Virus record (IMG/VR): IMGVR_UViG_2541047752_000007 | Location: 1 to 52,139 of that record | Reading direction: 5' to 3' (one strand) | Length of the DNA stretch: 52,139 nucleotides | Source: a virus | Taxonomy: Duplodnaviria; Heunggongvirae; Uroviricota; Caudoviricetes | Shown here: positions 23,173 to 42,736 of the stretch, in pieces | Layout: the number at the start of each line of letters is the position of its first letter | Position numbering within the stretch: the first letter of the stretch is position 1 | Notes under the pieces: model-generated | Seen by the model: only the letters and a program-made list of their open reading frames with translations | Told to the model about the DNA's origin: nothing | The model's database searches: none | Translations under genes and position numbers: made by a program

Positions 23173-23235
23173 CCATAATCGCGCATAAAAAACAAATAGA
23201 TTAAAATATTTCCTAACAATGCGAAATTGTAATTG

Positions 23236-23257
23236 CCCGGCCACGCGCCGGGTTTTT
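23236..23257 (+). terminator. rho-independent terminator immediately upstream of holin (tR'-like)
   Basis: cccggc-cacgc-gccggg followed by ttttt. Confidence 0.5.
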
Positions 23258-25453: not shown

Positions 25454-25454
25454 G

Positions 25455-25830: not shown

Positions 25831-25838
25831 GAAATATT

Positions 25839-25982
25839 ATGTTTGAATTTATCGATCTACTGATGTTCTTGCTTTGCGCTGGTGTGCTTATTATCGCGTT
25901 AATGTTATGCGCATACGTGATTGTAATGATTGGCGCGCTTATTTACAGAGAAGCAAAACAGAGATTTAAGGGTAAACAATGA
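25839..25982 (+). CDS. small single-TM peptide 8 (47 aa)
   Basis: MFEFIDLLMFLLCAGVLIIALMLCAYVIVMIGALIYREAKQRFKGKQ; GGTGAG RBS. Confidence 0.45.
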   Translation: MFEFIDLLMFLLCAGVLIIALMLCAYVIVMIGALIYREAKQRFKGKQ

Positions 25983-26062
25983 AAGAGCTATTCGACTGGT
26001 TGGAAGTATTAACATACTGCGCAAGTTTTGCGGCTTGCGTATATATCATCAATAAATATTGA
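25979..26062 (+). CDS. small single-TM peptide 9 (27 aa)
   Basis: MKELFDWLEVLTYCASFAACVYIINKY; ATGA overlap with peptide 8; AAGGG RBS. Confidence 0.45.
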   Translation: MKELFDWLEVLTYCASFAACVYIINKY

Positions 26063-26073
26063 GGGGTGACGTG

Positions 26074-26217
26074 GTGAGCAATGAAGAACTAAAAATGGCT
26101 GATGAAATAAGAAAGGCACTTGACGCGGCAGAAAATAATGAAACCGTCTACATTTCCGAACGGGAAGTGGAAAAGATGATGGATGAATTTAAATTAAAAT
26201 TTGAAAAAGATAATTGA
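26074..26217 (+). CDS. small acidic hydrophilic protein (47 aa, GTG start)
   Basis: VSNEELKMADEIRKALDAAENNETVYISEREVEKMMDEFKLKFEKDN; GAGGGG RBS; ends at TerS start. Confidence 0.3.
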   Translation: MSNEELKMADEIRKALDAAENNETVYISEREVEKMMDEFKLKFEKDN

Positions 26218-28233: not shown

Positions 28234-28335
28234 GTTATTGATTATTATCAACTTCGAAAAATTTTCGAAGATGAACAAGAATAATTCTCAATTGGCTACA
28301 TAAAATCTGTCTCACAATCCCCCACAAGTTTTTCT

Positions 28336-28359
28336 ATTTTTCGCGTAGCAACGCGTAAA
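28336..28359 (+). promoter_or_regulatory. conserved 24-bp motif upstream of portal gene (copy 1)
   Basis: atttttcgcgtagcaacgcgtaaa; 22/24 identical to 40773-40796. Confidence 0.5.
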
Positions 28360-28381
28360 CATGTATTCAGGAGTAAACATT

Positions 28382-29761
28382 ATGCCATCCAATTTAGAAT
28401 TGGCGGTTAATGCTGCCTTGTCACAACGCCAGGCGGCCTTTGCCCGCTATGCAGCCGCTAACCCATTCTCAATGGGTATTGATGCAAAACGTGATGCTGC
28501 GTGGAGTGAATACGGATTCAAAGAAGAAATCACCTATGCCGATTTATACAAACTGTATCGTCGCGGTGGTATCGCTCACGGTGCTATTGAGAAGATCATT
28601 ACTACGTGCTGGCGCACCAGGCCAACGCTGATTGAAGGTACGGAAGACGAGAAAGCGGAAAAGGAAACTTCGTGGGAAAGAGAAATCAAAAAACGATTCG
28701 ACAATAGATTCTGGCGCGTAATTGCTGAATGCGATCGCCGCCGCCTCATCGGTCGTTATGCTGGACTGTTAATTCACGTCAGGGATAACAAGCCGTGGGA
28801 TCAGCCAGTAACAAAAGGCGTAGGCATTGCCAAATTTACCCCCGTATGGGCTGGTGCTCTTACACCGAAGGACTTCGAAGAAAACCCGGATAAAGAAAAC
28901 TATGGCCTGCCTACATGGTGGGAATACAAGGAGCGCATTAACAGTAAGACCATAGCAAGAAAGATACATCCAGATCGTATATTTATCTTCGGTGATTATT
29001 CTGATGATGCCATCGCTTTCCTTGAACCGTCCTATAACGCATTCGTTTCACTGGAGAAAGTGGAAGGCGGCAGCGGTGAATCATTCCTGAAAAACGCCGC
29101 ACGTCAACTGGCTATCTCATTCGACAAAGAGATTGATTTCCGTTCCCTGGCTGCGACATACGGTTGCGACGTTACAGAGCTGCGCGAAAAATTCAATGAA
29201 GCGGCAGAGGATATAAACAAAGGGAATGATGTGATGATGGCATTACAGGGAGCCACCGTTAGCCCGCTGGTCACTGCCGTAGCAGATCCGTCCGCAACCT
29301 ATGACGTCAACCTGCAAACCGCCGCCGCTGGTATCGACATTCCAACGCGTATCCTGGTTGGGAATCAGCAGGGCGAACGCGCATCAACTGAAGACCTCCG
29401 CTACTTCAATAATCGCTGTATGACCCGCCGTGAGGAAATAGGAGGCGAGCTTGAGGAACTATTCCGCAAGATGGCAGATCTCCGCCTTATCAGTATGCCA
29501 GTCGATGTATCAGTGTTATGGGATGACCTTAACGCCATGACAAAAGCCGAACTACTGGAAGCGGCACACAAGATGGCGCAAATCAATCAGGCATGTCTCG
29601 CTACTGGTGAGGAAATATTTAGCGGCGATGAGATCCGCGAAGCTGCCGGATATGAAGGGCCAACGCAGGAAGTAGAAGTGGAAGACGAGGACGATAAAGA
29701 TGAAGATGAAAGTAAAGAGAATAATCAAAAAGATTCCGCCGTCCGCGATAATGCCATCTAA
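28382..29761 (+). CDS. portal protein
   Basis: about 459 aa from ATG 28382 (AGGAG RBS); size, acidic C-terminus and position after TerL. Confidence 0.8.
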   Translation: MPSNLELAVNAALSQRQAAFARYAAANPFSMGIDAKRDAAWSEYGFKEEITYADLYKLYRRGGIAHGAIEKIITTCWRTRPTLIEGTEDEKAEKETSWEREIKKRFDNRFWRVIAECDRRRLIGRYAGLLIHVRDNKPWDQPVTKGVGIAKFTPVWAGALTPKDFEENPDKENYGLPTWWEYKERINSKTIARKIHPDRIFIFGDYSDDAIAFLEPSYNAFVSLEKVEGGSGESFLKNAARQLAISFDKEIDFRSLAATYGCDVTELREKFNEAAEDINKGNDVMMALQGATVSPLVTAVADPSATYDVNLQTAAAGIDIPTRILVGNQQGERASTEDLRYFNNRCMTRREEIGGELEELFRKMADLRLISMPVDVSVLWDDLNAMTKAELLEAAHKMAQINQACLATGEEIFSGDEIREAAGYEGPTQEVEVEDEDDKDEDESKENNQKDSAVRDNAI

Positions 29762-30647
29762 CACCGAAGACCCGACCATGACAGGTAAGTTGCGGTCTGG
29801 AGCTATTAAGCGTTTTAAATCCTGCCTGAAGAAAATAGCCGATCCATATATCGCCATACTGGACAAAATACAATATAGCCTGGCTGTTAATAAGAAATAT
29901 ACCTTCCAGATTTACATGGATGAATTGCACGACATGCTGGAGGACGCCAGCGACATGATTGATGAGATATTCGAGCTAACCGACCCGGAAAGTTTTTGGT
30001 TCTGGCAGGAATACGTGAAGGTCGCGTATCAGCGAGGCACGGCACAGGAATACGCCAACCTTACTAACCAGTCTGTCACGTACTCAAGCGTTTATCCCGA
30101 TGTATCTGCCGTACTATCAAGCACAACCTACCGCACGCGCCTTGCCCTGGTCCGTACCCGTGTATTTGAGGAAATGCGCGGGCTGACAGCACAGATCAAA
30201 AAGGATATGGCCCGCCGACTAACTGAAGGCATGGCCCGTGGTTTAAACCCACTGGAAATAGCGCGCACATTGAATCAGGAGACGCAATTACCGCTATACA
30301 GATGCAAACGTATTGCTCGAACTGAAATATGCACAGCGTTACGCACAGCGCGTATGGATGAGGCAGAAGCGGCGACAGAAGAATTTAATCTGCGCACTAT
30401 GCAAATGCACATTTCGGCATTGTCACCGACTACCAGGCTATCGCACGCGCAGCGGCACGGGAAAACATACACCATAGATGAGCAGCGCGAATGGTGGAGT
30501 AGATCCCCTAATTCAATTAACTGCAAATGTAGCACGATTACCGTATTAGTTGACGAAGACGGTAACATATTAAACGAAAGAATATTAGATCGGGCGCAAG
30601 AAAACTATAAAGTTGCGCACGCTAAATATGGCGAAGATTGGGAGTAA
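29700..30647 (+). CDS. minor head / head morphogenesis protein (Mu F / SPP1 gp7-like)
   Basis: 315 aa; position after portal; family call from remembered pattern. Confidence 0.65.
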   Translation: MKMKVKRIIKKIPPSAIMPSNTEDPTMTGKLRSGAIKRFKSCLKKIADPYIAILDKIQYSLAVNKKYTFQIYMDELHDMLEDASDMIDEIFELTDPESFWFWQEYVKVAYQRGTAQEYANLTNQSVTYSSVYPDVSAVLSSTTYRTRLALVRTRVFEEMRGLTAQIKKDMARRLTEGMARGLNPLEIARTLNQETQLPLYRCKRIARTEICTALRTARMDEAEAATEEFNLRTMQMHISALSPTTRLSHAQRHGKTYTIDEQREWWSRSPNSINCKCSTITVLVDEDGNILNERILDRAQENYKVAHAKYGEDWE

Positions 30648-30652
30648 AAACC

Positions 30653-31942
30653 GTGAGTAAAGAATTAATTCAGGTTAATACCAAATTAACCGCTAATACC
30701 ATACGCCGGGAAACTTATAACGGACGCGAGCACATTGTTGTGCCATCATATACGCTGCCATTCAATATCGTTATGAATCGTGAGTATTACCCAGAAGCTG
30801 AAATTATCGCTAATTACCAGTTACTGGAGGGGACGCTTGCACCGTTAGGCCATCCTACCGTTGACGGTAAATTTGTTTCCGCATTTAGCCCGGAAGGATT
30901 GAACACGGGTTTTTGTGGAGCGTGGAACAGAAACGTTGAGTTACGCGGCAACCGTGTTTATGTGGAAAAATGGGTGGACGTGGAAACCGCCAGCCATTCA
31001 GAGCAGGGCCGGGAATTGTTAAGCCGACTGGAAGCGCTGGAGAAGGGAGAGAGCAAAGATCCTATCTGGTCGTCCGTCGCTGTATATCGCCAGCGTATGC
31101 CAGCCACCGAAGATATGAAAGCCCAGGGCGCTGACCATGTAGTGAAAATCATGTCGATCGACCATGACGCTATTTTGCTGCATGAGCCTCCAGCCGCTTC
31201 ACCGGAACAAGGTGTAGGCCTGATGGTTAATACTGACCAGGCAAAACCGTTAATGTCGGTGGCGATGAAAGAAAACAGCTACAGAACACTTGAGAAACAA
31301 TTAACAGACGCGGCGCGGGATTTATTCCCTGATGCTGATTATGTGTATGTGGTGGACTTCACTGATAAAGAGGTGACGATCGCCACTAATGCGGAAAGTG
31401 CTCAAGTTTGCGCATATGAAAAACAGGCTGATAAAATTATTCTCAATAATGGCGAGCTTGCAACCAACGAGGAAAGTAAATCATGGTTTGCTCAGTTCGC
31501 TGAACACCTTTCTAATCTTTTCTCCCTGAATGAAAAAATTAAGGCCAATAAATCGGAGGACGATCCCATGCCTTTGACAAAAGAAGAACGCGCCGAACTG
31601 GTAAAAGAAATTAACGAAGGCTTAGCCGCCAATATCGCTAATGCAGTAGCAGAGGCATTAAAACCAGTACAGGCAAGCGTAGAAGAATTACAGACCAACC
31701 AAGAAGAATTACAGACCAACCAGAAAGCAATTAAAGAAGAAATTGCAGCAAACGCAAATAAAGAAGTAGCAGAAAAACGCGCCGCAGTAGCAAAAGTTCA
31801 CGGCGAAATTGTTGCTAACGCATTAAGCGGTGAAGCATTAGAGGCAATGTTTAAATCCCTGGGTAAAGCAACTCCGCTAGCCGCCAACACAGCAAGTGAA
31901 GACAAAAAAGGTGAAGTCCCTGACTTTAACACTTATTTCTAA
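30653..31942 (+). CDS. putative scaffolding protein
   Basis: GTG start 30653 after GGAGT RBS; coiled-coil Glu/Ala/Lys-rich C-terminal half; precedes capsid genes. Confidence 0.5.
   Translation: MSKELIQVNTKLTANTIRRETYNGREHIVVPSYTLPFNIVMNREYYPEAEIIANYQLLEGTLAPLGHPTVDGKFVSAFSPEGLNTGFCGAWNRNVELRGNRVYVEKWVDVETASHSEQGRELLSRLEALEKGESKDPIWSSVAVYRQRMPATEDMKAQGADHVVKIMSIDHDAILLHEPPAASPEQGVGLMVNTDQAKPLMSVAMKENSYRTLEKQLTDAARDLFPDADYVYVVDFTDKEVTIATNAESAQVCAYEKQADKIILNNGELATNEESKSWFAQFAEHLSNLFSLNEKIKANKSEDDPMPLTKEERAELVKEINEGLAANIANAVAEALKPVQASVEELQTNQEELQTNQKAIKEEIAANANKEVAEKRAAVAKVHGEIVANALSGEALEAMFKSLGKATPLAANTASEDKKGEVPDFNTYF
31682..31723 (+). repeat. 21-bp perfect tandem repeat x2 inside scaffold gene
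   Basis: gaagaattacagaccaacca(a/g) twice, encoding EELQTNQ EELQTNQ. Confidence 0.85.
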
Positions 31943-31956
31943 CTGGAGGGAATACA

Positions 31957-32385
31957 ATGTCTCGTTTTCGTCGTGTAAATATTGATGGTAAATCCATTAC
32001 CGAAACCTACACTGCTAAGGTCGCAGTAAAACCAGGTGAACTGGTAAAACTGGACGGAGGTAAGTTTGCAAAAGCAACCAGTGCTGATGTCGGTGCAGCT
32101 CAGTTGTACATCGTCAACCCGGCATTCCACGAAGGCAAAACCATTACTGATGCAATCGCTGCAAATGAAACTGTTGTTGCTGATTATGTGGAACAGGGCC
32201 GAGAGTTTGCTCTCCTTGTTCCTGCAGCCGCTTATGTTAAGGGTGCAGCTATTGCTCTCGCAGCTGACGGGGTGAAACTGTTTGTTGCGCCAAGTGAACA
32301 GGCAGCGCCAGATCCGATCATCGCATACTGCCAGGAAGACGTAACCCTGGAAGCGGAAGATTTTATCCGCGTTCGCGTGGCTTAA
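31957..32385 (+). CDS. putative head decoration / structural head protein
   Basis: 142 aa, Ala/Val-rich; between scaffold and major capsid; GGAGGG RBS. Confidence 0.45.
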   Translation: MSRFRRVNIDGKSITETYTAKVAVKPGELVKLDGGKFAKATSADVGAAQLYIVNPAFHEGKTITDAIAANETVVADYVEQGREFALLVPAAAYVKGAAIALAADGVKLFVAPSEQAAPDPIIAYCQEDVTLEAEDFIRVRVA

Positions 32386-32402
32386 TTTAAAAGGGGAATA
32401 AC

Positions 32403-33467
32403 ATGTACTTTACTAAAGAAAACCTTGTCGCCAACTCCCGGATGCAGAGCCATTGGAAAGAACTGTGGGCGCAACGCAATATCTTCAACGAGCAGCACAA
32501 CGCCATGATTGCAGCAAATCAGGCAAATATGACCGCTGAAATGTTGACCTGTAACGCCGTCGGCGGCTTCGCAAAAGAATTCTGGAAAGAAATCGATAAC
32601 CAAATCATTGAACTGAACACCGAAGAGGTCGGTATCGAGATCGTAAACGACCTGATGGGTGTACAGACCGTATTACCAATCGGTAAAACGCTGAAAATGT
32701 ACAACGTATCCGGCGACATTAACGATGAGGTCGTAATGTCTATGGATGGTCAAGCGCCACACAGCTTTGATCACACCGAATACGGCAGCGATGGCGACCC
32801 GATCCCGATGTTCGCAGCGGGTTACGGTGTTAACTGGCGTTTAGCTCAGGGCTTAAATACTGTAGGTATCGACCTTGCATTAGACAGCCAGCGCCTTAAA
32901 CTGAAAAAATTCAACAAAGCACGCGTCCAGTTCTACCTGAATGGTAACGATCGCATCGTGGTTGATGATCATAAAGCAATGGGTATTAAAAACCACAAAA
33001 ACACCCAGCAACTTAAACTGAAAACTGTTGCTAAAATCGACCTTACCACTGCGGCTTTCGATAAGATTATTGAATTCTTTACCACTGGTGAGTTCGGGAA
33101 ACTGGCCCGCGCCAACTTCGTAGCTAAATACGATGTAATGTGGGTATCGCCAGAAATCATGGCTAACCTGGCACGCCCACACATCGTTAATGGCGCAATT
33201 GTTGGTAGTGTGCTGGATGTTATCAAGCCGTTTGTCCCGGTTGGTGATATTCGCCAGACCTATGCGCTGACTGGCAACGAATTTATCGCTTATCAGCGTA
33301 GCCGCAGCGTCATCACCCCGCTGATTGGCATGACCACTGGCGTAGTTCCGTTACCGCGCATGATGCCGACTGATAACTACAACTTCCGCATCATGTCCGC
33401 TGAGGGTCTGCAAATCACCCGTGACATGGAAGGTCGTTCAGGAGTGGTCTACGGCAGCAATACCTGA
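32403..33467 (+). CDS. major capsid protein
   Basis: 354 aa; position; followed by strong terminator. Confidence 0.7.
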   Translation: MYFTKENLVANSRMQSHWKELWAQRNIFNEQHNAMIAANQANMTAEMLTCNAVGGFAKEFWKEIDNQIIELNTEEVGIEIVNDLMGVQTVLPIGKTLKMYNVSGDINDEVVMSMDGQAPHSFDHTEYGSDGDPIPMFAAGYGVNWRLAQGLNTVGIDLALDSQRLKLKKFNKARVQFYLNGNDRIVVDDHKAMGIKNHKNTQQLKLKTVAKIDLTTAAFDKIIEFFTTGEFGKLARANFVAKYDVMWVSPEIMANLARPHIVNGAIVGSVLDVIKPFVPVGDIRQTYALTGNEFIAYQRSRSVITPLIGMTTGVVPLPRMMPTDNYNFRIMSAEGLQITRDMEGRSGVVYGSNT

Positions 33468-33485
33468 TTGATATGTTTCTGTAGC

Positions 33486-33513
33486 TCCCCGGCGCAATGC
33501 CGGGGATTTTTTT
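33486..33513 (+). terminator. rho-independent terminator after major capsid gene
   Basis: ccccggc-gcaat-gccgggg stem-loop followed by a T-run. Confidence 0.75.
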
Positions 33514-33532
33514 TGTATGTGGAGAAAACAAA

Positions 33533-33919
33533 ATGGTTACCACACAACAGGCGCGGGAATATCTCGAAAGCCAGGGGATTGAAATACCAGACGTGGTTTT
33601 ATCTTTGCTGGTGGAGCAGGCAAATAGCGTTAATGAATGCCTTGATGCCAATTATCCGTCCTCCACTGCAACATTGATTCAGCTTTATCTCATTGGCCTG
33701 TTAGGACTCAGCCAGGCTGATAAATACGTTTCCTCGCAGACTGGTCCGAACGGTGCAAGCCAGTCTTACCGCTATGTCGATTTTAATAAGCGATGGAAGG
33801 CGGCCTATTCGTTGCTTTACTCACTGGACAAACACCATTGTACAGCCGAACTAATTCCACCAGATCCAGAAAACACCGCGCACGCCGGGCTGTGGATTGG
33901 TAAGAGCAGGAGGATGTGA
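33533..33919 (+). CDS. putative head-tail connector / packaging protein
   Basis: 128 aa from MVTTQQARE; GGAGA RBS; position. Confidence 0.4.
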   Translation: MVTTQQAREYLESQGIEIPDVVLSLLVEQANSVNECLDANYPSSTATLIQLYLIGLLGLSQADKYVSSQTGPNGASQSYRYVDFNKRWKAAYSLLYSLDKHHCTAELIPPDPENTAHAGLWIGKSRRM

Positions 33920-33921
33920 CA

Positions 33922-34107
33922 ATGTGGAACGACCTGACATTACCAAATCCAGTATTGCCGAAACCATTTACCCGCGTGTGGGTTAAAACGGATAGCGGAC
34001 GCCAGGTGGCGGCCTACCTCAATGATGCTGGCTTATGGGTAATTCTTTGCCCGCGCGTGGCGAAAACTCATCCAAAGGTCATTAGCTGGAGTTACGGCTA
34101 TGAGTAA
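33922..34107 (+). CDS. hypothetical head-tail joining protein
   Basis: 61 aa; AGGAGGA RBS. Confidence 0.35.
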   Translation: MWNDLTLPNPVLPKPFTRVWVKTDSGRQVAAYLNDAGLWVILCPRVAKTHPKVISWSYGYE

Positions 34108-34468
34108 GATTGCGCGATTCAGTTACAAGGCATTAGCCACCATCTACCCCGTAACGCATGACGACTGGACAAACGCCGACGTATACGGCGCACCATACCT
34201 GATTAACTGCGCATGGGAGCGCACCGACGGCACTGCAACAGACACAAACGGTAATGAGGTTAGCAATACAATAACCGTATTTACCGAACTGCTTCATAAT
34301 ATGCAGCCAGTGCAGCGCCCGAAAAACGGCTGGATGATTGCCACTGGCGACACCACTAATATTTCCGACCCGCTGGTGGCTGGGGCCAACGTTATTACCG
34401 GGATCGTTGAATGGGATATGAGCATGTTTAACGACACGCCGGATTATAAGATCGTGACAGGGGGTTAA
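34100..34468 (+). CDS. putative head-tail adaptor
   Basis: 122 aa; position. Confidence 0.4.
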   Translation: MSKIARFSYKALATIYPVTHDDWTNADVYGAPYLINCAWERTDGTATDTNGNEVSNTITVFTELLHNMQPVQRPKNGWMIATGDTTNISDPLVAGANVITGIVEWDMSMFNDTPDYKIVTGG

Positions 34469-34470
34469 TC

Positions 34471-34935
34471 ATGCCTATCAAGGGGGTTAAACGCGTCCGT
34501 GAGAGATTAAAGCAGGAACTAAAGGAAATCACCGATAAAAAGACGCACGAAGTTTTATGGCGCGTCGGTATGCTGGCTGGTGGCTTCGCGGCTAATATGA
34601 CGCCAGTCGATACGGGCTTCTTAATTAACAGTCAGTTCCAGTACATAGGGAACACGGCGGACGGTATGCAATTACGCCTGGGATATACGGCCCGCTACGC
34701 TGAATGGGTGCACAATATGCCGGGTACATTAAAAGGCCAGCCGCGCGAAGATTTCGGCAAAACGAATAACCTTTCAGATTTCGGACCGAAACAGGTAATT
34801 AGTTTTGGTGGTGGTACTGGAAAGGGTAATTATTGGGATCCAAATGCGGAGCCTGGATTCTTGCGTAAGGCATTCGAAGATCCTAACCACGCCGATGATA
34901 TTTATAAAGAAATTGTAGAAGGTTACAAAGTATGA
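34471..34935 (+). CDS. HK97 gp10-like head-tail joining protein
   Basis: 154 aa; position and general resemblance. Confidence 0.45.
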   Translation: MPIKGVKRVRERLKQELKEITDKKTHEVLWRVGMLAGGFAANMTPVDTGFLINSQFQYIGNTADGMQLRLGYTARYAEWVHNMPGTLKGQPREDFGKTNNLSDFGPKQVISFGGGTGKGNYWDPNAEPGFLRKAFEDPNHADDIYKEIVEGYKV

Positions 34936-35318
34936 AACGCAGCGAAGTTTACGACGAAATAAGGGATTGGATTCAATCCCACGGATACGATGAAGGCTAT
35001 ATTTTGCAGGCCCGTTTCTGGAATGAGCGAAGTAATTCGAATAATGACAGATACATCGTGATCCAGCAAAACGGCGGCGCGGCTGGTGAGGAAGCAATAA
35101 CCCGTGATTATTTCCGCATCCTGGTTATTTCAGCGCGTAATGATGCAAATATCAGTGAGGTGGAAGACCTTGCCGATGCCATCCGTCAAAGTATGTTAAC
35201 AGAATATAAAACTGATAAAATTACACACATGAAGCCAGTTGGCGCTATTCCTGCAATACAGACAAGAGAAGGGCGCTTTATTTTTACCGTAGCCTTTCAA
35301 ACCATCATATCAAGATAA
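34932..35318 (+). CDS. putative tail completion protein
   Basis: 128 aa; immediately upstream of major tail protein. Confidence 0.4.
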   Translation: MKRSEVYDEIRDWIQSHGYDEGYILQARFWNERSNSNNDRYIVIQQNGGAAGEEAITRDYFRILVISARNDANISEVEDLADAIRQSMLTEYKTDKITHMKPVGAIPAIQTREGRFIFTVAFQTIISR

Positions 35319-35331
35319 GAGGTAAATTAAC

Positions 35332-35808
35332 ATGTCTCAGACTTGCGAAAAAGGCACGTTTTCAGGCCGTGACGTTGCTGTATTCTTCGCTATCGCTTGT
35401 CCAAATGCGAAGCCGGAAACTGGAGCGTACAAAGCGTTAGGCATGATGCGTGGTAAAACACTTTCCGTTGAATGGGAAACCGCTGACGCCACCGCCGATA
35501 AATCAGCCGATTACACGAAAGAATCAATGGTTACTTACAAATCCGTTTCTTTCTCCGGCGACGGTGTGTCCCGCACTGAAGAAATCCATAATCAGAAAGC
35601 GCTGAAACGCCACGTAATTACGCCAGGTGAAACCACCGGATCACAACCTTATGTATGGCTGAAGATCGTTTCTCCTGTAGACGTAACTGAAGGCCCATTC
35701 CTTTGCACTTCCTTTAAAGAAGAAGATCCGTATGATGATGTTTCCACCTGGTCTATTGAGTGCGAAAGCGCTGGCAAGGTAACGGTAGGCGACGTTCCGC
35801 CAGCATAA
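35332..35808 (+). CDS. major tail (tube) protein
   Basis: 158 aa; position before chaperone and tape measure; terminator follows. Confidence 0.55.
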   Translation: MSQTCEKGTFSGRDVAVFFAIACPNAKPETGAYKALGMMRGKTLSVEWETADATADKSADYTKESMVTYKSVSFSGDGVSRTEEIHNQKALKRHVITPGETTGSQPYVWLKIVSPVDVTEGPFLCTSFKEEDPYDDVSTWSIECESAGKVTVGDVPPA

Positions 35809-35826
35809 CAGCCAATATTAACAATC

Positions 35827-35851
35827 GGGGCCATTTGGCCCCTTTTCTTTT
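35827..35851 (+). terminator. rho-independent terminator after major tail gene
   Basis: ggggcc-attt-ggcccc followed by ttttctttt. Confidence 0.65.
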
Positions 35852-35863
35852 AAGGTGAATACT

Positions 35864-36541
35864 ATGATCCATGTTCGTACAGGGCAATTTGCGGCTGTGG
35901 TGAACGGTAAGCGCTATGAGTTTAATCCTTGCTTTGCTGCGATGGCTAAAATCGGCAACGATAGTGAGCTTGTCGAATATTTCGCACTTATCCACGGCAG
36001 CAAATACCCTTCACGATTACCTACAGATCCAGACCTCCGCAATCGCATTATGGCACGGTGTTATGGTGAGATAGTGCAAACGTCAATGCGCATCCTGAAA
36101 TGTTGCTCAGACGACGAAACAGGCCCGTTATTGGGCAAATGTAGGTTTACTCCTTCTGGTAAATTGAGACTAAAACCCGGACTGATGCCTACAAGTGATG
36201 TTATCACGCTGGCGCAACATTGCATGTACCACGGTTTAATTGGTGACGGGCCGGAAGAAGACACGGGCGCGATCCAGGAAGGCGAGTACAAGCCGACATT
36301 TGACGTACTTGAGTTTGTTTATTCTGCCGTTGCTCACCTGGGATTGTCAGAATCAGAAGCATGGAATATGACAATGACCGGATACAGGGCCGCAGTGCGC
36401 GCTAAAACGCCGCCAGACGAAAGAAATGAAAGAAGTAGACCAAATGTTCACATAAATAAACGTGCTTATGACGAGCAAATGGAGGCCGCTAAAAAGGCAC
36501 TGGAAAGAATGAAAAATAGCAAGCAAGAAAAAGCCCGGTAG
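35864..36541 (+). CDS. putative tail assembly chaperone
   Basis: 225 aa from ATG 35864; between major tail and tape measure; no slippery heptamer found. Confidence 0.4.
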   Translation: MIHVRTGQFAAVVNGKRYEFNPCFAAMAKIGNDSELVEYFALIHGSKYPSRLPTDPDLRNRIMARCYGEIVQTSMRILKCCSDDETGPLLGKCRFTPSGKLRLKPGLMPTSDVITLAQHCMYHGLIGDGPEEDTGAIQEGEYKPTFDVLEFVYSAVAHLGLSESEAWNMTMTGYRAAVRAKTPPDERNERSRPNVHINKRAYDEQMEAAKKALERMKNSKQEKAR

Positions 36542-36556
36542 ATCCGGGCGTTCATC

Positions 36557-36976
36557 TTATTTGATTCTAATAATATCAATAAACCCGTTACCCAAATCTA
36601 CAATTGCGTAATTTTTTGCGCCCGCGCCGCCTTCATTAAAAATTCTTTCCGCGAAAGCAACTTTATTTGCCTTGCACTCGTTTGCTATCCTGTTTTTTAT
36701 TTCGCTATTATTTTCAAAGACTACGCCTACAGCAGCCTCGTTTACAAGGCCATAATTAAACCAGCGAGCATAAACTGGTTTACCTTCAAATTTTTTATCA
36801 ATTGCCTTAAAAAGAATTGCTGGCGCGGCTGGTTCTTTTTTGATCATGTCGTGATATGCTGCTACATGGTTTGCCACTTCTTCACAGTTAATGCTTATGG
36901 CCTCGTTAGCGTTCGCGTTAAATGCGAGTGCGGCAATCACAGTAAGTGCCATTTTTGCTAACCGTTTCATAATCAA
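36557..36976 (-). CDS. secreted (signal-peptide) protein, reverse-strand moron
   Basis: 139 aa; N-terminal MKRLAKMALTVIAALAFNANA signal peptide; convergent with chaperone gene. Confidence 0.5.
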   Translation of the reverse strand: MIMKRLAKMALTVIAALAFNANANEAISINCEEVANHVAAYHDMIKKEPAAPAILFKAIDKKFEGKPVYARWFNYGLVNEAAVGVVFENNSEIKNRIANECKANKVAFAERIFNEGGAGAKNYAIVDLGNGFIDIIRIK

Positions 36977-37200
36977 CTCCTACCGCTTATTATGATTTGC
37001 TAAATTCTTCCTTTAACTTATTTATACACGCATATTGTTTATTTTTTAAGTGCTTTTAACATTTCTTCGATGAAATCCGCATAGCGTTCATGTTCGTTGG
37101 GGCGGTAGTTTGCGTTTTTCATTTTCTTGTCCCCTTTTGCTTCCTCCGGTTAATCCGGCCTTTTAAATCCATTTGCTCTATCCCTTCCCTTTAGCTTCTT

Positions 37201-37240
37201 TATACAAAATGTATTCGTTGAAATGAAGCCATTTTGTATA
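37201..37240. repeat. perfect 11-bp inverted repeat upstream of tape measure gene
   Basis: tatacaaaatg - 18 bp spacer - cattttgtata; 40 bp upstream of TMP start. Confidence 0.8.
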
Positions 37241-37279
37241 AAATAGAGGCATACATCACATTCTGCATGAGGTTAAATC

Positions 37280-39619
37280 ATGGCTACCAGTGTAGGTACA
37301 ATTTATTACGAAGTTGATGCGAAAACTGGTCAACTTCTCGTTGCACAACGACAGGCAGACCAGGCCTTTGATCGTATAGAGCGCGGCGCAAAACAGGCTG
37401 ACCGCCAGGTAAACACCCTGAAAACATCCATCAAGGCACTGACCAGGGTTATCCATTTGCTAATTGCTGCCGAGGCTGTGCGCCAATTTATGGATATGGC
37501 GGAGCAAGCAAAAATGCTTCGCGTAAAAATCAAAATGCTTACGGGCGATGCAGAGTCCGCCGGACGGGTTTTTGACGGCCTGAAAGCAATATCCAGGGAG
37601 ACGGGTCAGAGCCTGAAGGATACTGGCGAACTATGGCAAGGCCTGGCTATCTCACTGAAGAACACGTCAGCTACCGAAGGTCAATTACTTAACCTTGTCG
37701 GCACTATTCAGAAAATGGGGGCGTTAGGCGGTGCGTCAGCAGAGCAAATGTCAAACTCTATGCGCCAGTTCCGCCAGTCTATAGACGGCGGCGTGCTGCG
37801 TGCTGAAGAATTTAACAGCCTACTTGAAAACACCCCGACCATCGTACAAACAATGGCCCGCCATATGGGATTATCAATGGGCCAGTTCCGCGCCGAAATG
37901 CTGGACGGTAAGATCACGGCAGAAAGGATGGTTAACGCAATCCAGGCGGCTACGCAGGAAACAAACGAGAAGTTTGCGCAGTTGCCGCGCACATCCGGCA
38001 CGGCTATCAATGAACTAAAAGTCGAGGTAATGGGTCTGGTGGAACAACTGGACGATCTTTTCGGTGTATCAGATGGCGTAGTCTCAGCTATCGACTTGAT
38101 CACAAAAGGAGTTAATGGGCTAGGTGAGGGCGCTAAATTCGCTAAAACCTGCTTTGATACGCTCAAAACGGCTGGTAGCGAATTCATCGACATGTTTGAT
38201 GATGTGGCTGTGAAGGCTGGCGAGGTGGCAGAGAAGATCATCGCAATGGTGACGCCAATCAAGGCGCTAATGGATGGCTATAAATGGATGAAAGAGATTG
38301 TCGATGAACGCAAGGAAGAACTAAACAGCAACAACGAGAAAAAATTTGGCCCTACCATCGGTAAATTCATGACGTTTAAAAACGACATTGAAAAGGCGAC
38401 CGCCGCTTATGACGAGCTTATGCAGAAACAGGCAGAAGCCAACGACGGAGCTATTACCGGATTCGATAAGCCAGTTGATAAGCCGAAAAAACAGAAAAAA
38501 GAGAAGAAATCGGAAGCTGATCGGCTTGGAGACAAGGGCATAAGCGTTTCTGATCAGTACAACAAAGACGCCGCCGCCATGCGCAAAGCGTTAGAGAACG
38601 GCAAGGCCATTGATGCTGCGTTCGCCCAGGGTAAAATCACACTCCTTGAGTACCGCGCCGCGCAAAAAGGGATCGGCAAGGAGCTGAAAGAAGAATTAGC
38701 GCAGATCCCGGTAGATGAATTGCGTGATAAATGGTCGCAAATAGTTAGCCCAATGGACCAGCTAAAAGGCGAAGTTGACCCTATCCAGCAGGCGCAAAAT
38801 GAATGGGCCGTCCGTAAGCAAATGCTTATCGACCTGGGCGCTACAGAAGCACAACAGAAACAGGAATTATTAGCCTATGAGCAGCAGATCCGCGATCTGA
38901 AGTGGGAACAGTGGCAGGCGCAAAGCCAGACAAACGGCCTGATCGGTGATTGCGTTAATGGCCTTAAAGGTGGCATGAGCAATGCGCTTGTTGGCCTGCT
39001 TAACGGTACTCAATCATTGAGCGATGTTTTTGCTAACTTAGGCAGCAATATACTTGGGAATATCGGTAACAGACTTTCGGACATAGCTGCCAACTGGATA
39101 GCAGATCAAATCATGATGGAGACACAAAGCAAAGCCACGCAGGCCAGCACAACGGCAAGCGCGGTTGCCGCTCAGGGAAGCATTGCTGCGGCGGCGGCCC
39201 CGGCGGCGGCAGCGACAGCGGCATCAACTGGCGGTAGCTGGGCGGCGGCTGGCTCGGCGGCGCTTACTGCGATCATGTCGCTGGCAACATCCATTTTCGG
39301 CGGCGGGCGCTTTAATGGTGGTAGCGTAATTGGTGGCAATATGTACCGCGTCGGGGAACATAACAGGCCGGAGCTATTCCAGACGTCTAACGGCAACCAA
39401 TACATGATCCCCGGCGAGAATGGCAGGGTTATCCCGGGCCGTGATATTGGCGGCGGCGGCGGTATCAGTATGCCTGTTTACATCGACATTCAAACCACAA
39501 ACGGATTTAGTGACGAAGACAGCCGCAGACTTGAACAGACAATGGAACGTGTAGCCATGAAAATGATAACAAGGGAATCGCAAAGACCTGGCGGGATGTT
39601 GCAACCGCGCCGCAAATAA
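37280..39619 (+). CDS. tail tape measure protein (lambda H-like)
   Basis: 779 aa; coiled-coil, Ala/Gly-rich C-terminal region; position. Confidence 0.85.
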   Translation: MATSVGTIYYEVDAKTGQLLVAQRQADQAFDRIERGAKQADRQVNTLKTSIKALTRVIHLLIAAEAVRQFMDMAEQAKMLRVKIKMLTGDAESAGRVFDGLKAISRETGQSLKDTGELWQGLAISLKNTSATEGQLLNLVGTIQKMGALGGASAEQMSNSMRQFRQSIDGGVLRAEEFNSLLENTPTIVQTMARHMGLSMGQFRAEMLDGKITAERMVNAIQAATQETNEKFAQLPRTSGTAINELKVEVMGLVEQLDDLFGVSDGVVSAIDLITKGVNGLGEGAKFAKTCFDTLKTAGSEFIDMFDDVAVKAGEVAEKIIAMVTPIKALMDGYKWMKEIVDERKEELNSNNEKKFGPTIGKFMTFKNDIEKATAAYDELMQKQAEANDGAITGFDKPVDKPKKQKKEKKSEADRLGDKGISVSDQYNKDAAAMRKALENGKAIDAAFAQGKITLLEYRAAQKGIGKELKEELAQIPVDELRDKWSQIVSPMDQLKGEVDPIQQAQNEWAVRKQMLIDLGATEAQQKQELLAYEQQIRDLKWEQWQAQSQTNGLIGDCVNGLKGGMSNALVGLLNGTQSLSDVFANLGSNILGNIGNRLSDIAANWIADQIMMETQSKATQASTTASAVAAQGSIAAAAAPAAAATAASTGGSWAAAGSAALTAIMSLATSIFGGGRFNGGSVIGGNMYRVGEHNRPELFQTSNGNQYMIPGENGRVIPGRDIGGGGGISMPVYIDIQTTNGFSDEDSRRLEQTMERVAMKMITRESQRPGGMLQPRRK

Positions 39620-39624
39620 CACTA

Positions 39625-39650
39625 AGGCCGCTATAAGCGGCCTTTATTTT
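39625..39650. terminator. bidirectional rho-independent terminator after tape measure gene
   Basis: aggccgc-tataa-gcggcct followed by ttatttt; between convergent genes. Confidence 0.55.
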
Positions 39651-39756
39651 ACATGGTAAGGATATAAATTAAACAGCACAGGAATGCGGGCGCGGCGAAG
39701 TCGCAAACGCTAGCCATATTCCATGCTTTTGGTAAAAAACCACCATACCACGGCAT
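39649..39756 (-). CDS. small hydrophobic peptide (35 aa)
   Basis: MPWYGGFLPKAWNMASVCDFAAPAFLCCLIYILTM; GGAGGG about 12 nt upstream; C-terminal part of ORF-track 39649-39840. Confidence 0.3.
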   Translation of the reverse strand: MPWYGGFLPKAWNMASVCDFAAPAFLCCLIYILTM

Positions 39757-39799
39757 TCTTTCTCGTTTCCCTCCGCAAAATTCCGCTATGTAACGATAT

Positions 39800-39934
39800 T
39801 CAGCCTGTGTGTTCCCGCGCAAAAAAGAATGTACATCCAATCAGGCCGCCAGTGAGATAATCGCCAGTAAGCAGGCCGATAACAACCTGTATAGTCGCCG
39901 CAGCCAGTGCGTGACCAATAACGGTTAAATCCAT
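39800..39934 (-). CDS. small glycine-zipper membrane peptide (44 aa)
   Basis: Hand-translated MDLTVIGHALAAATIQVVIGLLTGDYLTGGLIGCTFFFAREHTG; GGGAGGA RBS 7 nt upstream. Confidence 0.4.
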   Translation of the reverse strand: MDLTVIGHALAAATIQVVIGLLTGDYLTGGLIGCTFFFAREHTG

Positions 39935-39936
39935 CG

Positions 39937-40122
39937 TTAATCCTCCCGATCGTTCTCAAATGTGCCATCTACAAATTTTTGCAGCCCGGCGATAAGTTGT
40001 GTTGCCTGCGATTTTTCAATCACTATGGTTTCAGTCCCCATAAGTTCGGTTATCCACAGCCGACCATCCTCATCAAGATCTAACCTAACTCCGTAACATA
40101 ACTCTGTTTCGTCAATAATCAT
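39937..40122 (-). CDS. hypothetical acidic protein
   Basis: 61 aa; stop overlaps start of the 44-aa peptide gene. Confidence 0.4.
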   Translation of the reverse strand: MIIDETELCYGVRLDLDEDGRLWITELMGTETIVIEKSQATQLIAGLQKFVDGTFENDRED

Positions 40123-40231
40123 TTTTCCTCCTATAATCTTCCGTTACGTGCGACGTAACCCCTGCCGAACATCACTAACCAGATGTTCCAGATCTCCCGC
40201 TAGGTATATTTCTCCTCCTCCATATTCCACC

Positions 40232-40486
40232 TCACTTATGAGCGCCTTTCACTCCGCAATGACGGTTGTATTCCAGGTGATCGATAATTAACCAAATATT
40301 CAAATCTTCACTGAACAGCCGCCAGTCAGGATTGATATCGAATTTAAAGCCATAACCATCACGTAATTTTTTGGGGCGGGCTTCTTTTTTCAGGAAGGCG
40401 TTAAGCAACTTCTTGCCTTTCTTGATTACCCGTTCCTGTGCATTCTTTTGTGCTTTCAGGTTTTTTTCGATAGTTACCAGTTTCAT
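40232..40486 (-). CDS. hypothetical basic protein (84 aa)
   Basis: Lys-rich N-terminal half; possible toxin-like fold but no confident family. Confidence 0.4.
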   Translation of the reverse strand: MKLVTIEKNLKAQKNAQERVIKKGKKLLNAFLKKEARPKKLRDGYGFKFDINPDWRLFSEDLNIWLIIDHLEYNRHCGVKGAHK

Positions 40487-40503
40487 AACTCACCCCATCG
40501 TCC

Positions 40504-40659
40504 TTAGTTAAGCGCCCTCAGGAAGAAATCCCGGTATTCATCATCCTTCGCGTTCATCATGAATTGACCGTATTTGAATGCGTCGTCGAAACCCTTAACA
40601 ATTGCTACTTCCACTTGCTCGAATGCGTTGTTTAGCATCACTACTACATAGCTACTCAT
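40504..40659 (-). CDS. hypothetical small protein (51 aa)
   Basis: Hand-translated MSSYVVVMLNNAFEQVEVAIVKGFDDAFKYGQFMMNAKDDEYRDFFLRALN; 17 nt upstream of the 84-aa gene. Confidence 0.35.
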   Translation of the reverse strand: MSSYVVVMLNNAFEQVEVAIVKGFDDAFKYGQFMMNAKDDEYRDFFLRALN

Positions 40660-40772
40660 TTTTGGGCCTCACTTGCTGGTACCGCTTTTCTTCTTGCTTC
40701 CTGTATACAGCTTGTTGCTTCATGTGTGAATCCATATTGTAAACTAGCTATAATTCTTGTGATGAATATCTC

Positions 40773-40796
40773 ATTTTTCGCGTAGAAGCGCGTAAA
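40773..40796 (+). promoter_or_regulatory. conserved 24-bp motif upstream of tail gene M (copy 2)
   Basis: atttttcgcgtagaagcgcgtaaa, followed by tatacaaaatgtaa motif and RBS. Confidence 0.5.
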
Positions 40797-40830
40797 GATA
40801 TATACAAAATGTAACTTACAGGAGGGGGGT

Positions 40831-41184
40831 ATGCCGGAAGTGTTCAGATGGACACCACAGAGAAGCTACAGCGTAAACAGTGAGCCTAACGTGTCCGTTA
40901 TCAAGCTGGGCGATGGCTATGAACAGCGCCAGACAAAAGGGATTAATCCACTACTTGACAGCTATACGCTGGTCTTTAAAGGTACGAGCGCCGGATGCGG
41001 TGACGCCGGAAACGTGGCGCTCCAGGTTGACGCATTTTTAAGAGCACGTTGCGCGGTCGAGGCGTTTTACTGGACGCCATCTACAGACGGAGTGAAAAGG
41101 CTTTTTGTATGCCGAAAGTGGAGCATGGCGAAAGACGGCCCGGTATGCACTCTGAATGCAACGTTTGAACAAGTTATCAATTAA
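40831..41184 (+). CDS. M: minor tail protein M
   Basis: 117 aa; FRW, GDGYEQRQ, FEQVIN align with remembered lambda gpM. Confidence 0.8.
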   Translation: MPEVFRWTPQRSYSVNSEPNVSVIKLGDGYEQRQTKGINPLLDSYTLVFKGTSAGCGDAGNVALQVDAFLRARCAVEAFYWTPSTDGVKRLFVCRKWSMAKDGPVCTLNATFEQVIN

Positions 41185-41197: not shown

Positions 41198-41383
41198 ATG
41201 TATGCTATTTGTGTAGTTGACCGCACGGGCGCTTTTACATTATTTGACGACTATGAAATCAAAGATCTTACCGTAAAGGCTGACAATGGCGAGATCTGGT
41301 ATCTTCATGACGTTGGTGACGGGTATGTCGGATGCAGATCGAGAGAGGGTAGGGAAGTTTTATTCTTGCTTGATGGCGTATAA
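41198..41383 (+). CDS. hypothetical small protein
   Basis: 61 aa from MYAICVVDR; GGAGA RBS. Confidence 0.4.
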   Translation: MYAICVVDRTGAFTLFDDYEIKDLTVKADNGEIWYLHDVGDGYVGCRSREGREVLFLLDGV

Positions 41384-41412
41384 ACACTACCCCGCGCGAA
41401 GCGGGGTTATTA

Positions 41413-41529
41413 TTATTCCATTTCCATTAACGCTATATTTTCCGCTATCGTTTTCCAGTCCAGATCTACAGCATGAACACCAAATACTATCAATCCCATT
41501 GCGATTAGTGCTAAAACTTCGATTTTCAT
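41413..41529 (-). CDS. small single-TM peptide (38 aa)
   Basis: MKIEVLALIAMGLIVFGVHAVDLDWKTIAENIALMEME; GAGG RBS. Confidence 0.35.
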   Translation of the reverse strand: MKIEVLALIAMGLIVFGVHAVDLDWKTIAENIALMEME

Positions 41530-41541
41530 AATCAACCTCAC

Positions 41542-41622
41542 TTAATTAAGAAAGGCATAAACGATGACAATCGCGCCAGCCACTACCAAAACGTTTTCGA
41601 TTACTTCGTCCACTCTATTCAT
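41542..41622 (-). CDS. small single-TM peptide (26 aa)
   Basis: MNRVDEVIENVLVVAGAIVIVYAFLN; start shares a base with upstream stop. Confidence 0.3.
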   Translation of the reverse strand: MNRVDEVIENVLVVAGAIVIVYAFLN

Positions 41623-41825
41623 TAAGGTAACTCCACTTCATTAAATGTAACAAGCACCCCTTGATTTTCTTTATTTATAATTATGAAGGCATTAATTGAA
41701 GGCAGACATCTTTCCACGCGGTAAACGTCACCAATATCTAAACTGTAATATTCTGTTAATTCTCTATTGTTCCCTTTAGCAAAACCCGTAAACCTAACCA
41801 TTCCTTGACCGTCGTACTTTAACAT
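41622..41825 (-). CDS. hypothetical protein
   Basis: 67 aa ORF in moron operon. Confidence 0.4.
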   Translation of the reverse strand: MLKYDGQGMVRFTGFAKGNNRELTEYYSLDIGDVYRVERCLPSINAFIIINKENQGVLVTFNEVELP

Positions 41826-41833
41826 ATACAGTC

Positions 41834-42082
41834 CTATAGGCTATCACGCAGATAATTAACGCCCTTATCAGTGACGAATGAATGATTAACCTGGTTTTCA
41901 TCCGTCATGATGATGAATAACTTTTCCTGTAGGTATTTCGCTTTCGGGTACAGCGTTAAGCAGACCTGGTACAAAATCCCGCGCTCAATCAGCAAATCAA
42001 TAAATTCGTGCTCATGATAACCGATAAGGCGGGCGGCCTGCTTCAACGTGTACACATAATCACTGTGATTGCGCCGCGCCAT
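41834..42082 (-). CDS. putative HTH DNA-binding protein
   Basis: 82 aa; YTLKQAARLIGYHEHEFIDLLIERGIL helix-turn-helix-like. Confidence 0.4.
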   Translation of the reverse strand: MARRNHSDYVYTLKQAARLIGYHEHEFIDLLIERGILYQVCLTLYPKAKYLQEKLFIIMTDENQVNHSFVTDKGVNYLRDSL

Positions 42083-42090
42083 ATTGCCAC

Positions 42091-42438
42091 CTATTTGTCG
42101 AACGCTCCAAGATTATCTATACAGAAATCCTTTGCCGCTTTTTCGTATTCGCGTTTTGCTTGCGGATCGTCAGCCGGGAAACCTTTTGCGTGTATTTCAC
42201 CAGGGCAAGACTGATCCATAGAGTCTGCAAAATTAACATTGAAGTTAACATTAATATCTTTCGGGTTCATATCTTCCACCTCATCAACTATCTGTACCGG
42301 ATTAGCAGCATATTTCACTGGATGGCCTAAACTACATTCAAGAATCCTGCCTTCTTCCAGGGCTACTTCTTCGCTATCAAATAATCCGAAACACTCCTTT
42401 CTGCCACTTAACCACACATCAAGACTGTATTTTTTCAT
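42091..42438 (-). CDS. hypothetical protein (about 115 aa from MKKYSL)
   Basis: ORF-track 42091-42540; internal start chosen to avoid long overlap. Confidence 0.4.
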   Translation of the reverse strand: MKKYSLDVWLSGRKECFGLFDSEEVALEEGRILECSLGHPVKYAANPVQIVDEVEDMNPKDINVNFNVNFADSMDQSCPGEIHAKGFPADDPQAKREYEKAAKDFCIDNLGAFDK

Positions 42439-42606
42439 TTTTGTTAGCCTCATATTTGACAGGTTCGATCTGGTATCCCAAAAGGCGGTCATCCTCAACA
42501 AGTAAAAGCGCGTCAACCAATGCTTCCCCCTCGTCGTCATACAGGGCGATAACCTTTTCCCTACCGTCTGTCATGAATGCCGTCAACTTCCATAGCTTTT
42601 CAGTCA
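42419..42606 (-). CDS. hypothetical small protein (62 aa)
   Basis: MTEKLWKLTAFMTDGREKVIALYDDEGEALVDALLLVEDDRLLGYQIEPVKYEANKNEKIQS; GGAGGTG RBS; first gene of moron operon. Confidence 0.45.
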
Positions 42607-42736
42607 TAACGCACCTCCGCGCCATTTTGTTAACTCCTCCTTCGTTTGAGTAAAATATACATATTGTAAAAACCACGATCAATCCATTTTGGTATGATTT
42701 GGCGTGACGCAGATCACAAAATGACAAGGTGAGAAA

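Follow-up and report, generated by a model that had tools for sequence, protein, structure and literature searches.

The stretch of DNA analysed here, referred to as the window, comprises all 52,139 nucleotides of IMG/VR record IMGVR_UViG_2541047752_000007 and is related, at 80-93% identity, to coliphage mEp021 and the rest of the mEpimmI phages. The mEpimmI phages are recently described, Nus-dependent, non-lambdoid temperate siphoviruses (PMC11893012). The late region of the window runs rightward from the Q gene (17802-18530), whose product is a Q-lambda family member (PF03589 in Pfam), through accessory genes, lysis genes, terS and terL to the portal, head and tail genes. The tail operon is broken three times by opposite-strand cassettes, located before the tape-measure gene (37280), the minor tail gene M (40831) and gene L (42737), and the M unit is closed by a strong bidirectional terminator (41389-41407). 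Upstream of the portal gene, within the terL-portal intergenic region (site 1), and upstream of gene M (site 2) lie the two copies of an element of 24-31 nt that is the subject of this report. The identity of both downstream genes is confirmed by Pfam (Phage_portal_3 and Phage_min_tail, respectively). The coordinates of the element and of the features discussed with it are collected in Table 1.

The element had first been pointed out in a sequence-only reading of the window, and its description is borne out by direct comparison: the two 24-mers are identical at 22 of 24 positions, both contain a direct repeat of CGCGTA with a period of 10, and both are partly palindromic with the dyad TTTxCGCG-N6-CGCGxAAA. 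The same reading placed the copies about 25-35 bp before late genes. The distances measured differ slightly: the ATG of M lies 34 nt past copy 2 and the portal ATG 22 nt past copy 1, with only 9 nt separating copy 1 from the Shine-Dalgarno (SD) sequence. The similarity exceeds the 24-mer and extends over 34 nt at 85% identity. A 38-nt local alignment of the copies, TCT(C)ATTTTTCGCGTAG.A.CGCGTAAA.AT.TAT.CA, scores 44, compared to a mean of 14.5 and a maximum of 27 for shuffled sequences. Outside this shared stretch of about 34-38 nt, the flanks of the two copies are unrelated. A search for extra copies throughout the window by mismatch search, half-site pairs and weight matrix, as the sequence-only reading had recommended, yielded no third or degenerate copy. 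On both strands, only the two copies are found at up to three mismatches (0.00 expected from 100 shuffles), and pairs of the form CGCGTA-N2-8-CGCGTA occur only at these two places (0.11 expected). A 33-nt weight matrix derived from the family copies gives scores of 56.6 for copy 1 and 52.4 for copy 2, the next best score in the window being about 0.

Table 1. Coordinates of the two copies of the element and of associated features in the window.
Feature	Position	Strand	Description
Motif copy 1	28336..28359	+	ATTTTTCGCGTAGCAACGCGTAAA; terL-portal intergenic; likeness to copy 2 continues to ~28369
Motif copy 2	40773..40796	+	ATTTTTCGCGTAGAAGCGCGTAAA; 5' of minor tail gene M; likeness to copy 1 continues to ~40806
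Possible RNA hairpin, copy 1	28342..28356	+	CGCGU-AGCA-ACGCG; -6.1 kcal/mol, z -1.6
Possible RNA hairpin, copy 2	40779..40793	+	CGCGU-AGAA-GCGCG; -8.8 kcal/mol, z -2.4
Portal SD AGGAG and ATG	28369..28384	+	SD 28369-73, ATG 28382; leader from 28326 to ATG almost invariant in family
Gene M SD AGGAGG and ATG	40820..40833	+	SD 40820-25, ATG 40831
Invariant TATAAT	40749..40754	+	Precedes copy 2 by 18 nt in every sequence; no column varies among 47 distinct sequences
TACAAAATGT box	40803..40812	+	6 nt downstream of copy 2; one of ~21 -10-like boxes in the window
TACAAAATG[GT] boxes, among others	3993, 5131(-), 7777, 8620, 9299, 12732(-), 12756(-), 16267, 16332(-), 37203, 37229(-), 40732(-), 40803, 42622(-), 49990(-), 50023		
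Probable Q-dependent late promoter PR'	23202..23253	+	Control, outside the element; TAAAAT, pause element AACAAT, terminator
Three nut sites as described for mEp021	7663-7676(-), 8935-8951, 16380-16393		Recognised by boxA and boxB hairpin

The element is a signature of the mEpimmI family, with exactly two copies per genome. All seven mEpimmI phage records carry it in two places each, and at each of the two orthologous positions mEp021 has the identical 24-mer. In a set of 50,697 phage records, full-length matches are restricted to these seven, the other 58 being 17-nt chance matches in a T4-type tail-fibre gene. The element is held by 35 of 5426 complete Escherichia coli genomes, at a median of two places per genome and never outside a prophage. 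As it does not occur in E. coli beyond these prophages, it is not a host element. The same two places are occupied in about 80 viral or metagenome contigs. When family loci were fetched independently of the motif, via the portal protein, the M protein or the promoter box of site 2, the element was present in every locus and both sites were kept. The core of copy 1 is identical across 49 portal-anchored IMG/VR loci except for spacer variants and one T>C change, and copy 2 is found in all M-anchored family loci with few single-base variants. The nearest relatives outside the family, namely ES18, S137, further contigs from IMG/VR and 24 prophages from other Enterobacterales (M 57-67% or portal about 60% identical), are devoid of the motif. 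In non-family relatives, M directly follows the tape-measure gene or a terminator. About 30 non-family IMG/VR sequences match the strict pattern, but these represent unrelated, mostly coding contexts and their number is in the range expected by chance.

This cross-phage comparison, which had also been proposed in the initial description, thus places both copies at orthologous positions in all family members examined. A recent local duplication including the flanks does not explain them, since the sites are orthologous although the surrounding DNA is only 80-90% identical. Neither the 14-mers nor the 16-mers of the motif were found in the searchable literature, and the paper describing the family makes no mention of it (PMC11893012). 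The element is family-specific and, as far as the searchable literature goes, so far undescribed.

The core, CGCGTAG-N3-CGCGTAAA, is far better conserved than the flanks of site 2. Across 35 distinct variants of 34 nt, no change is seen in 14 columns, which are TT, the final CG of the first CGCG block plus the T after it, the G of TAG, GCGTAAA and a single T further downstream. Nearly all remaining motif columns are at least 90% conserved, and only the three bases after TAG are free, the observed spacers being CAA, AAG, AAT, AGG, CTA, CGA and AAA. At site 2, much more variation is seen in the 18 nt that separate TATAAT from the motif and in the bases past the motif. The entire site-1 leader, from TTTTTCT up to the ATG, is nearly invariant in the family. 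Rare variants include TGCGTAG (two lineages), TGCGTAA (one), CGCGTGG (one) and several changes in the T-run. In loci L166 and L167, the spacer is one base shorter, which reduces the repeat period to 9 bp. Variants of site 2 are not mirrored at site 1 within the same prophage. Spacers are occasionally exchanged between the sites, such that site 1 carries GAAG in L004, L030 and L247, and site 2 carries GCAA in L069, L420 and L423; this pattern suggests gene conversion between the two copies. A rearrangement of site 2 is seen in the IMG/VR contig L102, where a free-standing HNH homing-endonuclease gene is located between the site-2 leader and M (reverse strand, ~8690-9500), placing the motif and promoter ahead of the endonuclease gene.

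Purifying selection acts on the element, whose orientation and position are fixed. The proposed role as a conserved regulatory site that acts in cis where two late genes are entered is well supported by this selection, by its restriction to one family, and by its presence in exactly two copies of fixed orientation. It is likely that the element is the selected binding site of a regulator acting on either DNA or RNA, two modes of action that the comparative data cannot separate. The interpretation that we tentatively prefer is that of a protein-binding element in late mRNA leaders that would contain a short, boxB-like CGCG hairpin. According to this model, the element would be transcribed within the late messages, immediately 5' of the portal and M ribosome-binding sites, where the two CGCG blocks would pair into a hairpin of 4-5 G+C base pairs with a loop whose 5' half (U-A-G) is conserved and whose 3' half is free, followed by an invariant UAAA tail. 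One sequence-specific factor, of either phage or host origin, would then bind both leaders and set the translation or stability of portal and M together, these being two low-copy assembly-initiator proteins. Action at the RNA level, binding of a protein and the direction of the effect are the parts of this model that we infer.

The RNA-level interpretation is consistent with the predicted folding and the pattern of variation. Both sites show the short hairpin in their minimum-energy and centroid folds, and it is the only structure to survive in the consensus when 29 and 49 distinct family sequences are folded with RNAalifold. Its 5-bp stem is closed by U-A or U.G and displays the loop AGCA or AGAA; at copy 1 it corresponds, in DNA terms, to the first CGCGTAG and the CGCG start of the second repeat, with CGCGTAA reaching 28358. 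The conservation is asymmetric in a loop-like manner, with UAG retained, the three bases behind it free and a loop shorter by 1 nt tolerated (L166/L167). Across the family, 92.7% of the hairpin pair cells are paired, and three independent C>U changes in the stem (L165, L170/171 and PAR/Ecol_244) each keep a G.U pair on the plus-strand transcript. Furthermore, both copies lie on the sense strand in all genomes, with site 1 being operon-internal, and the hairpin is built much like the boxB hairpins at the phage's own nut sites (Table 1).

Several observations weigh against an RNA hairpin as the bound form. A compensatory change is seen at none of the nine pairs, and the rare CACGTAG allele, a single allele found in two prophages (N1286 and PRO_A-1370), breaks one pair by a G>A change in the stem (two cells). 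The T-run changes ATTTGT, ATTATT and ATTTAT are uncompensated in the AAA tail, and a longer stem of 8-11 bp is therefore not supported. The fold energies are marginal compared to shuffled sequences, 12 of 200 shuffles being as good for copy 1 and 3 of 200 for copy 2. In addition, the occurrence of the CGCGTAR 7-mer in both halves, as judged from the sequence, fits a tandem-repeat site and not a simple hairpin. Rfam 15 gave no family match across the whole window. Scans of the neighbouring conserved open reading frames (ORFs) against Pfam, PHROGs, NCBIfam and PDB returned no binder, and the N-like protein Gp17 is the only conserved protein with an arginine-rich motif.

Other RNA-based functions and individual candidate binders were considered and rejected. 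A longer RNA structure or anti-SD stem is not retained by alifold, which keeps the short hairpin only, and the whole-leader z scores are 0.17 and -1.1. A leader mini-ORF ending at the conserved TAG exists at site 2 only and is impossible at site 1. The element is not an intrinsic terminator either: UAAA comes after the hairpin, the T-run is on its 5' side, and the terminator scan reported it on neither strand. As for binders, orf19828, which contains an arginine-rich stretch, is absent from mEp021. The small ORF following M (41198-41383) is also present in T1/Rtp-like phages that are devoid of the motif, and its single-sequence structural model is of low confidence, with a predicted local distance difference test (pLDDT) score of 65. 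A CI-like repressor is not the binder because the motif is not found at the early promoters or in the immunity region (7630-9010). Among the consensus sequences of host regulators, that of CpxR (GTAAA-N5-GTAAA) matches at 8-9 of 10 positions but leaves the invariant CGC unexplained, and those of PurR, PhoP, marbox, ops and Fis do not fit. With respect to architecture, a parallel to an RNA element at this position is found in the coat-protein operators of MS2 and PP7, which likewise consist of a small stem with a sequence-specific loop just 5' of or over the ribosome-binding site. The MS2 operator, however, includes the start codon, whereas the motif hairpin ends 13-27 nt before the SD.

A close, slightly less probable alternative to the RNA-level interpretation is a DNA operator. 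Here a phage-encoded or host protein would bind in tandem to two direct repeats of 7 bp, CGCGTAG and CGCGTAA, which are separated by one helical turn and have T- and A-tracts as flanks. Direct repeats with a 10-bp period occur only at these two places of the window, the sequence is conserved without covariation, TAR follows both CGCG blocks, and the second repeat with the subsequent AAA is almost invariant. A sigma-70 consensus scan revealed no plus-strand promoter-like site overlapping either copy. At site 1, a CACAAT upstream of copy 1 is present without a -35 and appears as CACAAC or CACAAA in relatives; with no plus-strand promoter and a decaying CACAAT, a role in transcription initiation is excluded at this site.

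At site 2, the situation is different in that the motif lies between a conserved TATAAT and the TACAAAATGT box, and an activator or operator role is therefore geometrically possible only there. The suggestion of an activator site fails for site 1, where no -10 could serve and the ATG is too near, and is geometrically possible for site 2. The TATAAT is probably part of a secondary promoter, in which case the motif would occupy about +12 to +35 of its transcript, a classical repressor position. Its -35, which reads GTGAAT in the window (40726-31) and GTGAAG in the consensus of the family, is weak and matches at only 3 of 6 positions, which is why this promoter was not called by the consensus scan. 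If, on the other hand, the TACAAAATGT box is a -10, the CGCGTA repeats would be centred near -35 and -25, and a bound protein would also cover the -35 region of that promoter. The spacing of TATAAT, 18 nt, motif, 6 nt and box is constant across all site-2 sequences though the intervening bases vary, in agreement with a DNA operator. A further sequence at site 2, TGTGATGAATATCTCA, lies immediately before the motif.

The site-2 box belongs to a 10-bp sequence, TACAAAATG[GT], with 21 copies in the window at up to one mismatch versus 5.4 expected. The boxes are mostly intergenic, form divergent pairs around opposite-strand cassettes, and are located about 20 nt before several ATGs. With this placement the box looks like a -10 signal of the small transcription units of the phage, and it is probably a -10-type signal that serves many such units without a -35 hexamer. 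Before those ATGs, the leader past the box continues as ...TGTAAACAT...ACATTATG. A second reused leader piece, GTGAYGCAGATCACAAAATG, is found at 16286-16305, 42704-42723 and 50012-50031; two of these copies, one 14 nt ahead of gene L and the other ahead of ORF 50072, are 95% identical, and the piece contains a CRP-like TGTGA-N6-TCACA dyad.

The geometry at site 2 is reminiscent of the lambda CII promoters PRE, PI and PaQ, as both involve direct repeats one helical turn apart, and the site-2 repeats would straddle the -35 of a promoter with a -10-like box and no -35 hexamer. In lambda, CII sites take the form TTGC-N6-TTGC around the -35. The CII-type geometry holds at site 2 if CAAAAT (40805-10) is the -10. 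In contrast to CII promoters, site 1 has CAGGAG, which is the SD, at the -10 distance, the repeat sequence differs, and no CII-like protein was found in the scans of neighbouring conserved ORFs.

At site 1, a DNA operator would act as an orientation-fixed roadblock similar to the stoperators of cluster A mycobacteriophages (L5 gp71 type), which are orientation-dependent intergenic repressor sites. Like the motif, stoperators are asymmetric and are situated in short intergenic gaps in one orientation, within operons and near promoters (PMC9283540). However, a genome contains more than 20 of them, and their sequence is also that of the early-promoter operator bound by the immunity repressor, whereas the motif has two sites, none of which is in the immunity region or at an early promoter. 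Moreover, an operator at site 1 would have no promoter to control, and a roadblock at this place would hinder transcription needed for the head genes. The 9-bp period in L166/L167, the site-2 variants without a counterpart at site 1 of the same prophage, and the failure of the protein scans to provide a candidate also count against an operator.

The remaining interpretations are less likely. The element could be a processing or stability cassette without a dedicated binder, which we consider improbable. RNase E prefers to cleave at RN↓WUU. In such a cassette it would cut within A-UUUUU and the GC hairpin would protect the new 5' end, so that the portal/head and M messages would no longer be tied in their stability to the RNA upstream. 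At both sites, R-U-U-U-U-U is directly followed by a GC hairpin, in line with the RNase E preference, and site 1 is at an operon-internal junction where segmental stability would matter. Nevertheless, A+U-rich tracts suit this preference almost anywhere, the hairpin is weak, and the T-run is the least conserved part of the motif. The sequence conservation of the loop and tail bases (UAG, UAAA) would furthermore be needless for a purely structural stabiliser.

The hairpin also invites comparison with the boxB of nut sites, as recognised by lambda N and mEp021 Gp17. The boxB elements share with the motif a 4-5-bp G+C stem, a purine-rich loop and an A-rich tail, and they are likewise conserved in sequence and found in long operons, on the sense strand, in two or three copies per genome. 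The mEp021 family is reported to have three nut sites and to show Gp17-dependent read-through of terminator t5 before the lysis genes (PMC11893012). In the window, the boxB hairpins of the corresponding sites (Table 1) have a GC stem of 4-5 bp, a purine-rich loop starting with U and an A-rich tail; two of the three have GNRA tetraloops closed by U.U or U-A, with the same stem architecture as the motif. The two copies could be late nut-like sites bound by Gp17, enabling re-modified RNA polymerase to pass the bidirectional terminators of the tail operon or repressing translation of portal and M on early read-through transcripts. The site-2 loop UAGAAG resembles the UGGAAGU of nutR1, Gp17 is the one conserved protein of the appropriate type, and the M unit ends at a strong bidirectional terminator. 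However, a canonical nut site is not present, as no boxA (CGCTCTTTA-like) was found near 28336 or 40773; in the window, GCTCWTTWA occurs at the three nut sites (7687(-), 8915 and 16361) and at 13469(-) and 50760(-). The motif loop is AGNN or UAGNNN and not GNRA-like, site 1 has no nearby terminator to overcome, and the motif is late and directly precedes ribosome-binding sites, whereas boxB lies downstream of early promoters. Nor do such sites figure in the nut analysis published for the family (PMC11893012). It is very doubtful that Gp17 acts at these sites in either of the two ways, and there is an equally slim chance that the leaders of portal and M contain a second class of boxB-like hairpin that would be bound by an arginine-rich-motif protein, be it Gp17 or an unrecognised partner, which would restrain translation of both genes from early read-through transcripts or re-arm polymerase within the interrupted tail operon.

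The initial suggestion of a late promoter was extended to a Q-loading (qut) site, and both are very unlikely. Both copies do precede late genes, site 2 is flanked by promoter-like elements, and the Q protein of phage 82 can load promoter-distally when provided with a Q-binding element and a pause element (PMC4914094). As in the lambdoid PR' with its Q-binding and pause elements, a cis element would thus be situated at late-gene entry in a phage encoding a Q-lambda family protein. The phage, however, has its own probable PR' at ~23200, directly before the holin gene, which shares no sequence with the motif. Its layout is lambda-like, with the -10 TAAAAT at 23202-07, the pause element AACAAT at 23215-20 (+1 to +6, where lambda has AACGAT) and a strong terminator 20 nt further on, at 23235-53, and it is conserved in nine family sequences. 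Local alignments of PR' with the motif are no better than with shuffled sequences (16 vs 14.3 for site 1; 14 vs 15.3 for site 2), and the motif lies downstream of, and not within, its nearest promoter. Site 1 has no -10 downstream of the copy and is too near the ATG, and no copies precede the other tail restart points at the tape-measure gene (37280) and L (42737).

It is just as improbable that the element has no regulatory function and represents an old leader-cassette duplication kept alike by gene conversion, or a module-recombination linker as had also been put forward: spacers are sometimes exchanged, the adjoining junctions collect insertions (the 67-bp insert at 28234-28300 and the HNH gene in L102) and other leader pieces are reused in the same genome, yet little or no change is seen in the core while the intergenic bases next to it vary, both sites are kept in every family member, ES18-like relatives sharing the portal and M modules do not have it, and an unselected 24-bp direct repeat flanking the head genes would favour deletions. 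A linker function at module boundaries of mosaic phages is not supported by this distribution, as full-length matches are confined to mEpimmI records and are absent from ES18, S137 and the 24 prophages. In its action the element would come closest to a small leader hairpin bound by a protein (boxB, coat-protein operators) or, alternatively, to an operator of fixed orientation (stoperator, CII site). As the element fails at least one defining test of each known system discussed here, it is not assigned to any of them.

Several further features of the window were recorded alongside the element. Upstream of site 1, a 67-bp insert between the terL stop and the site-1 leader, present in only part of the family, contains the palindrome CTTCGAAAAATTTTCGAAG at 28252-28270; the terL-portal gap measures about 148 nt in the window and 57 nt in family members without the insert. 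The homologues of the portal protein (28382-29761) are labelled 'anti-CBASS protein Acb1 family protein' by RefSeq/PGAP in most E. coli genomes, a label that is probably misleading because Pfam assigns Phage_portal_3, the mEp021 record gives portal, and NCBIfam has no hit. Around site 2, the tail units, consisting of the tape measure, M with the small ORF, and L-K-I-J, are separated by accessory cassettes on the opposite strand at 36557-37122(-), 39649-40659(-) and 41413-42727(-), which are bounded by bidirectional terminators at 36533-36549, 39624-39644 and 41389-41407; one of these cassettes carries a KilAC antirepressor fragment. The PR' region (23150-23260) exists with two alternative upstream halves within the family, which may correspond to two Q specificities. 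Upstream of terS, about 960 bp (25252-26213) contain no ORF of at least 60 amino acids on either strand, the corresponding gap in mEp021 being about 490 bp; this region, which has no Rfam match, could hold the packaging site or a non-coding RNA. Finally, the minus-strand ORF 5144-5866 contains an internal 177-nt direct repeat (5498-5674 and 5684-5860) with 82% identity.

In the human gut, phages of the mEpimmI group are found as commonly as lambdoid ones, and the paper describing the family covers only the repressor and the N-like system (PMC11893012). With no occurrence elsewhere in E. coli or in the 50,697 phage records, the element provides a diagnostic mark of this family. If the interpretation as a second class of boxB-like hairpin were true, it would tie an N-type factor directly to the timing of the virion assembly initiators; we know of no such link in lambda-type phages beyond the repression by N of its own translation. 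The motif is the most conserved non-coding sequence before two assembly-initiator genes and marks portal and M as a co-regulated pair, and its binder would show how a phage whose tail operon is split by three opposite-strand cassettes balances its structural proteins.

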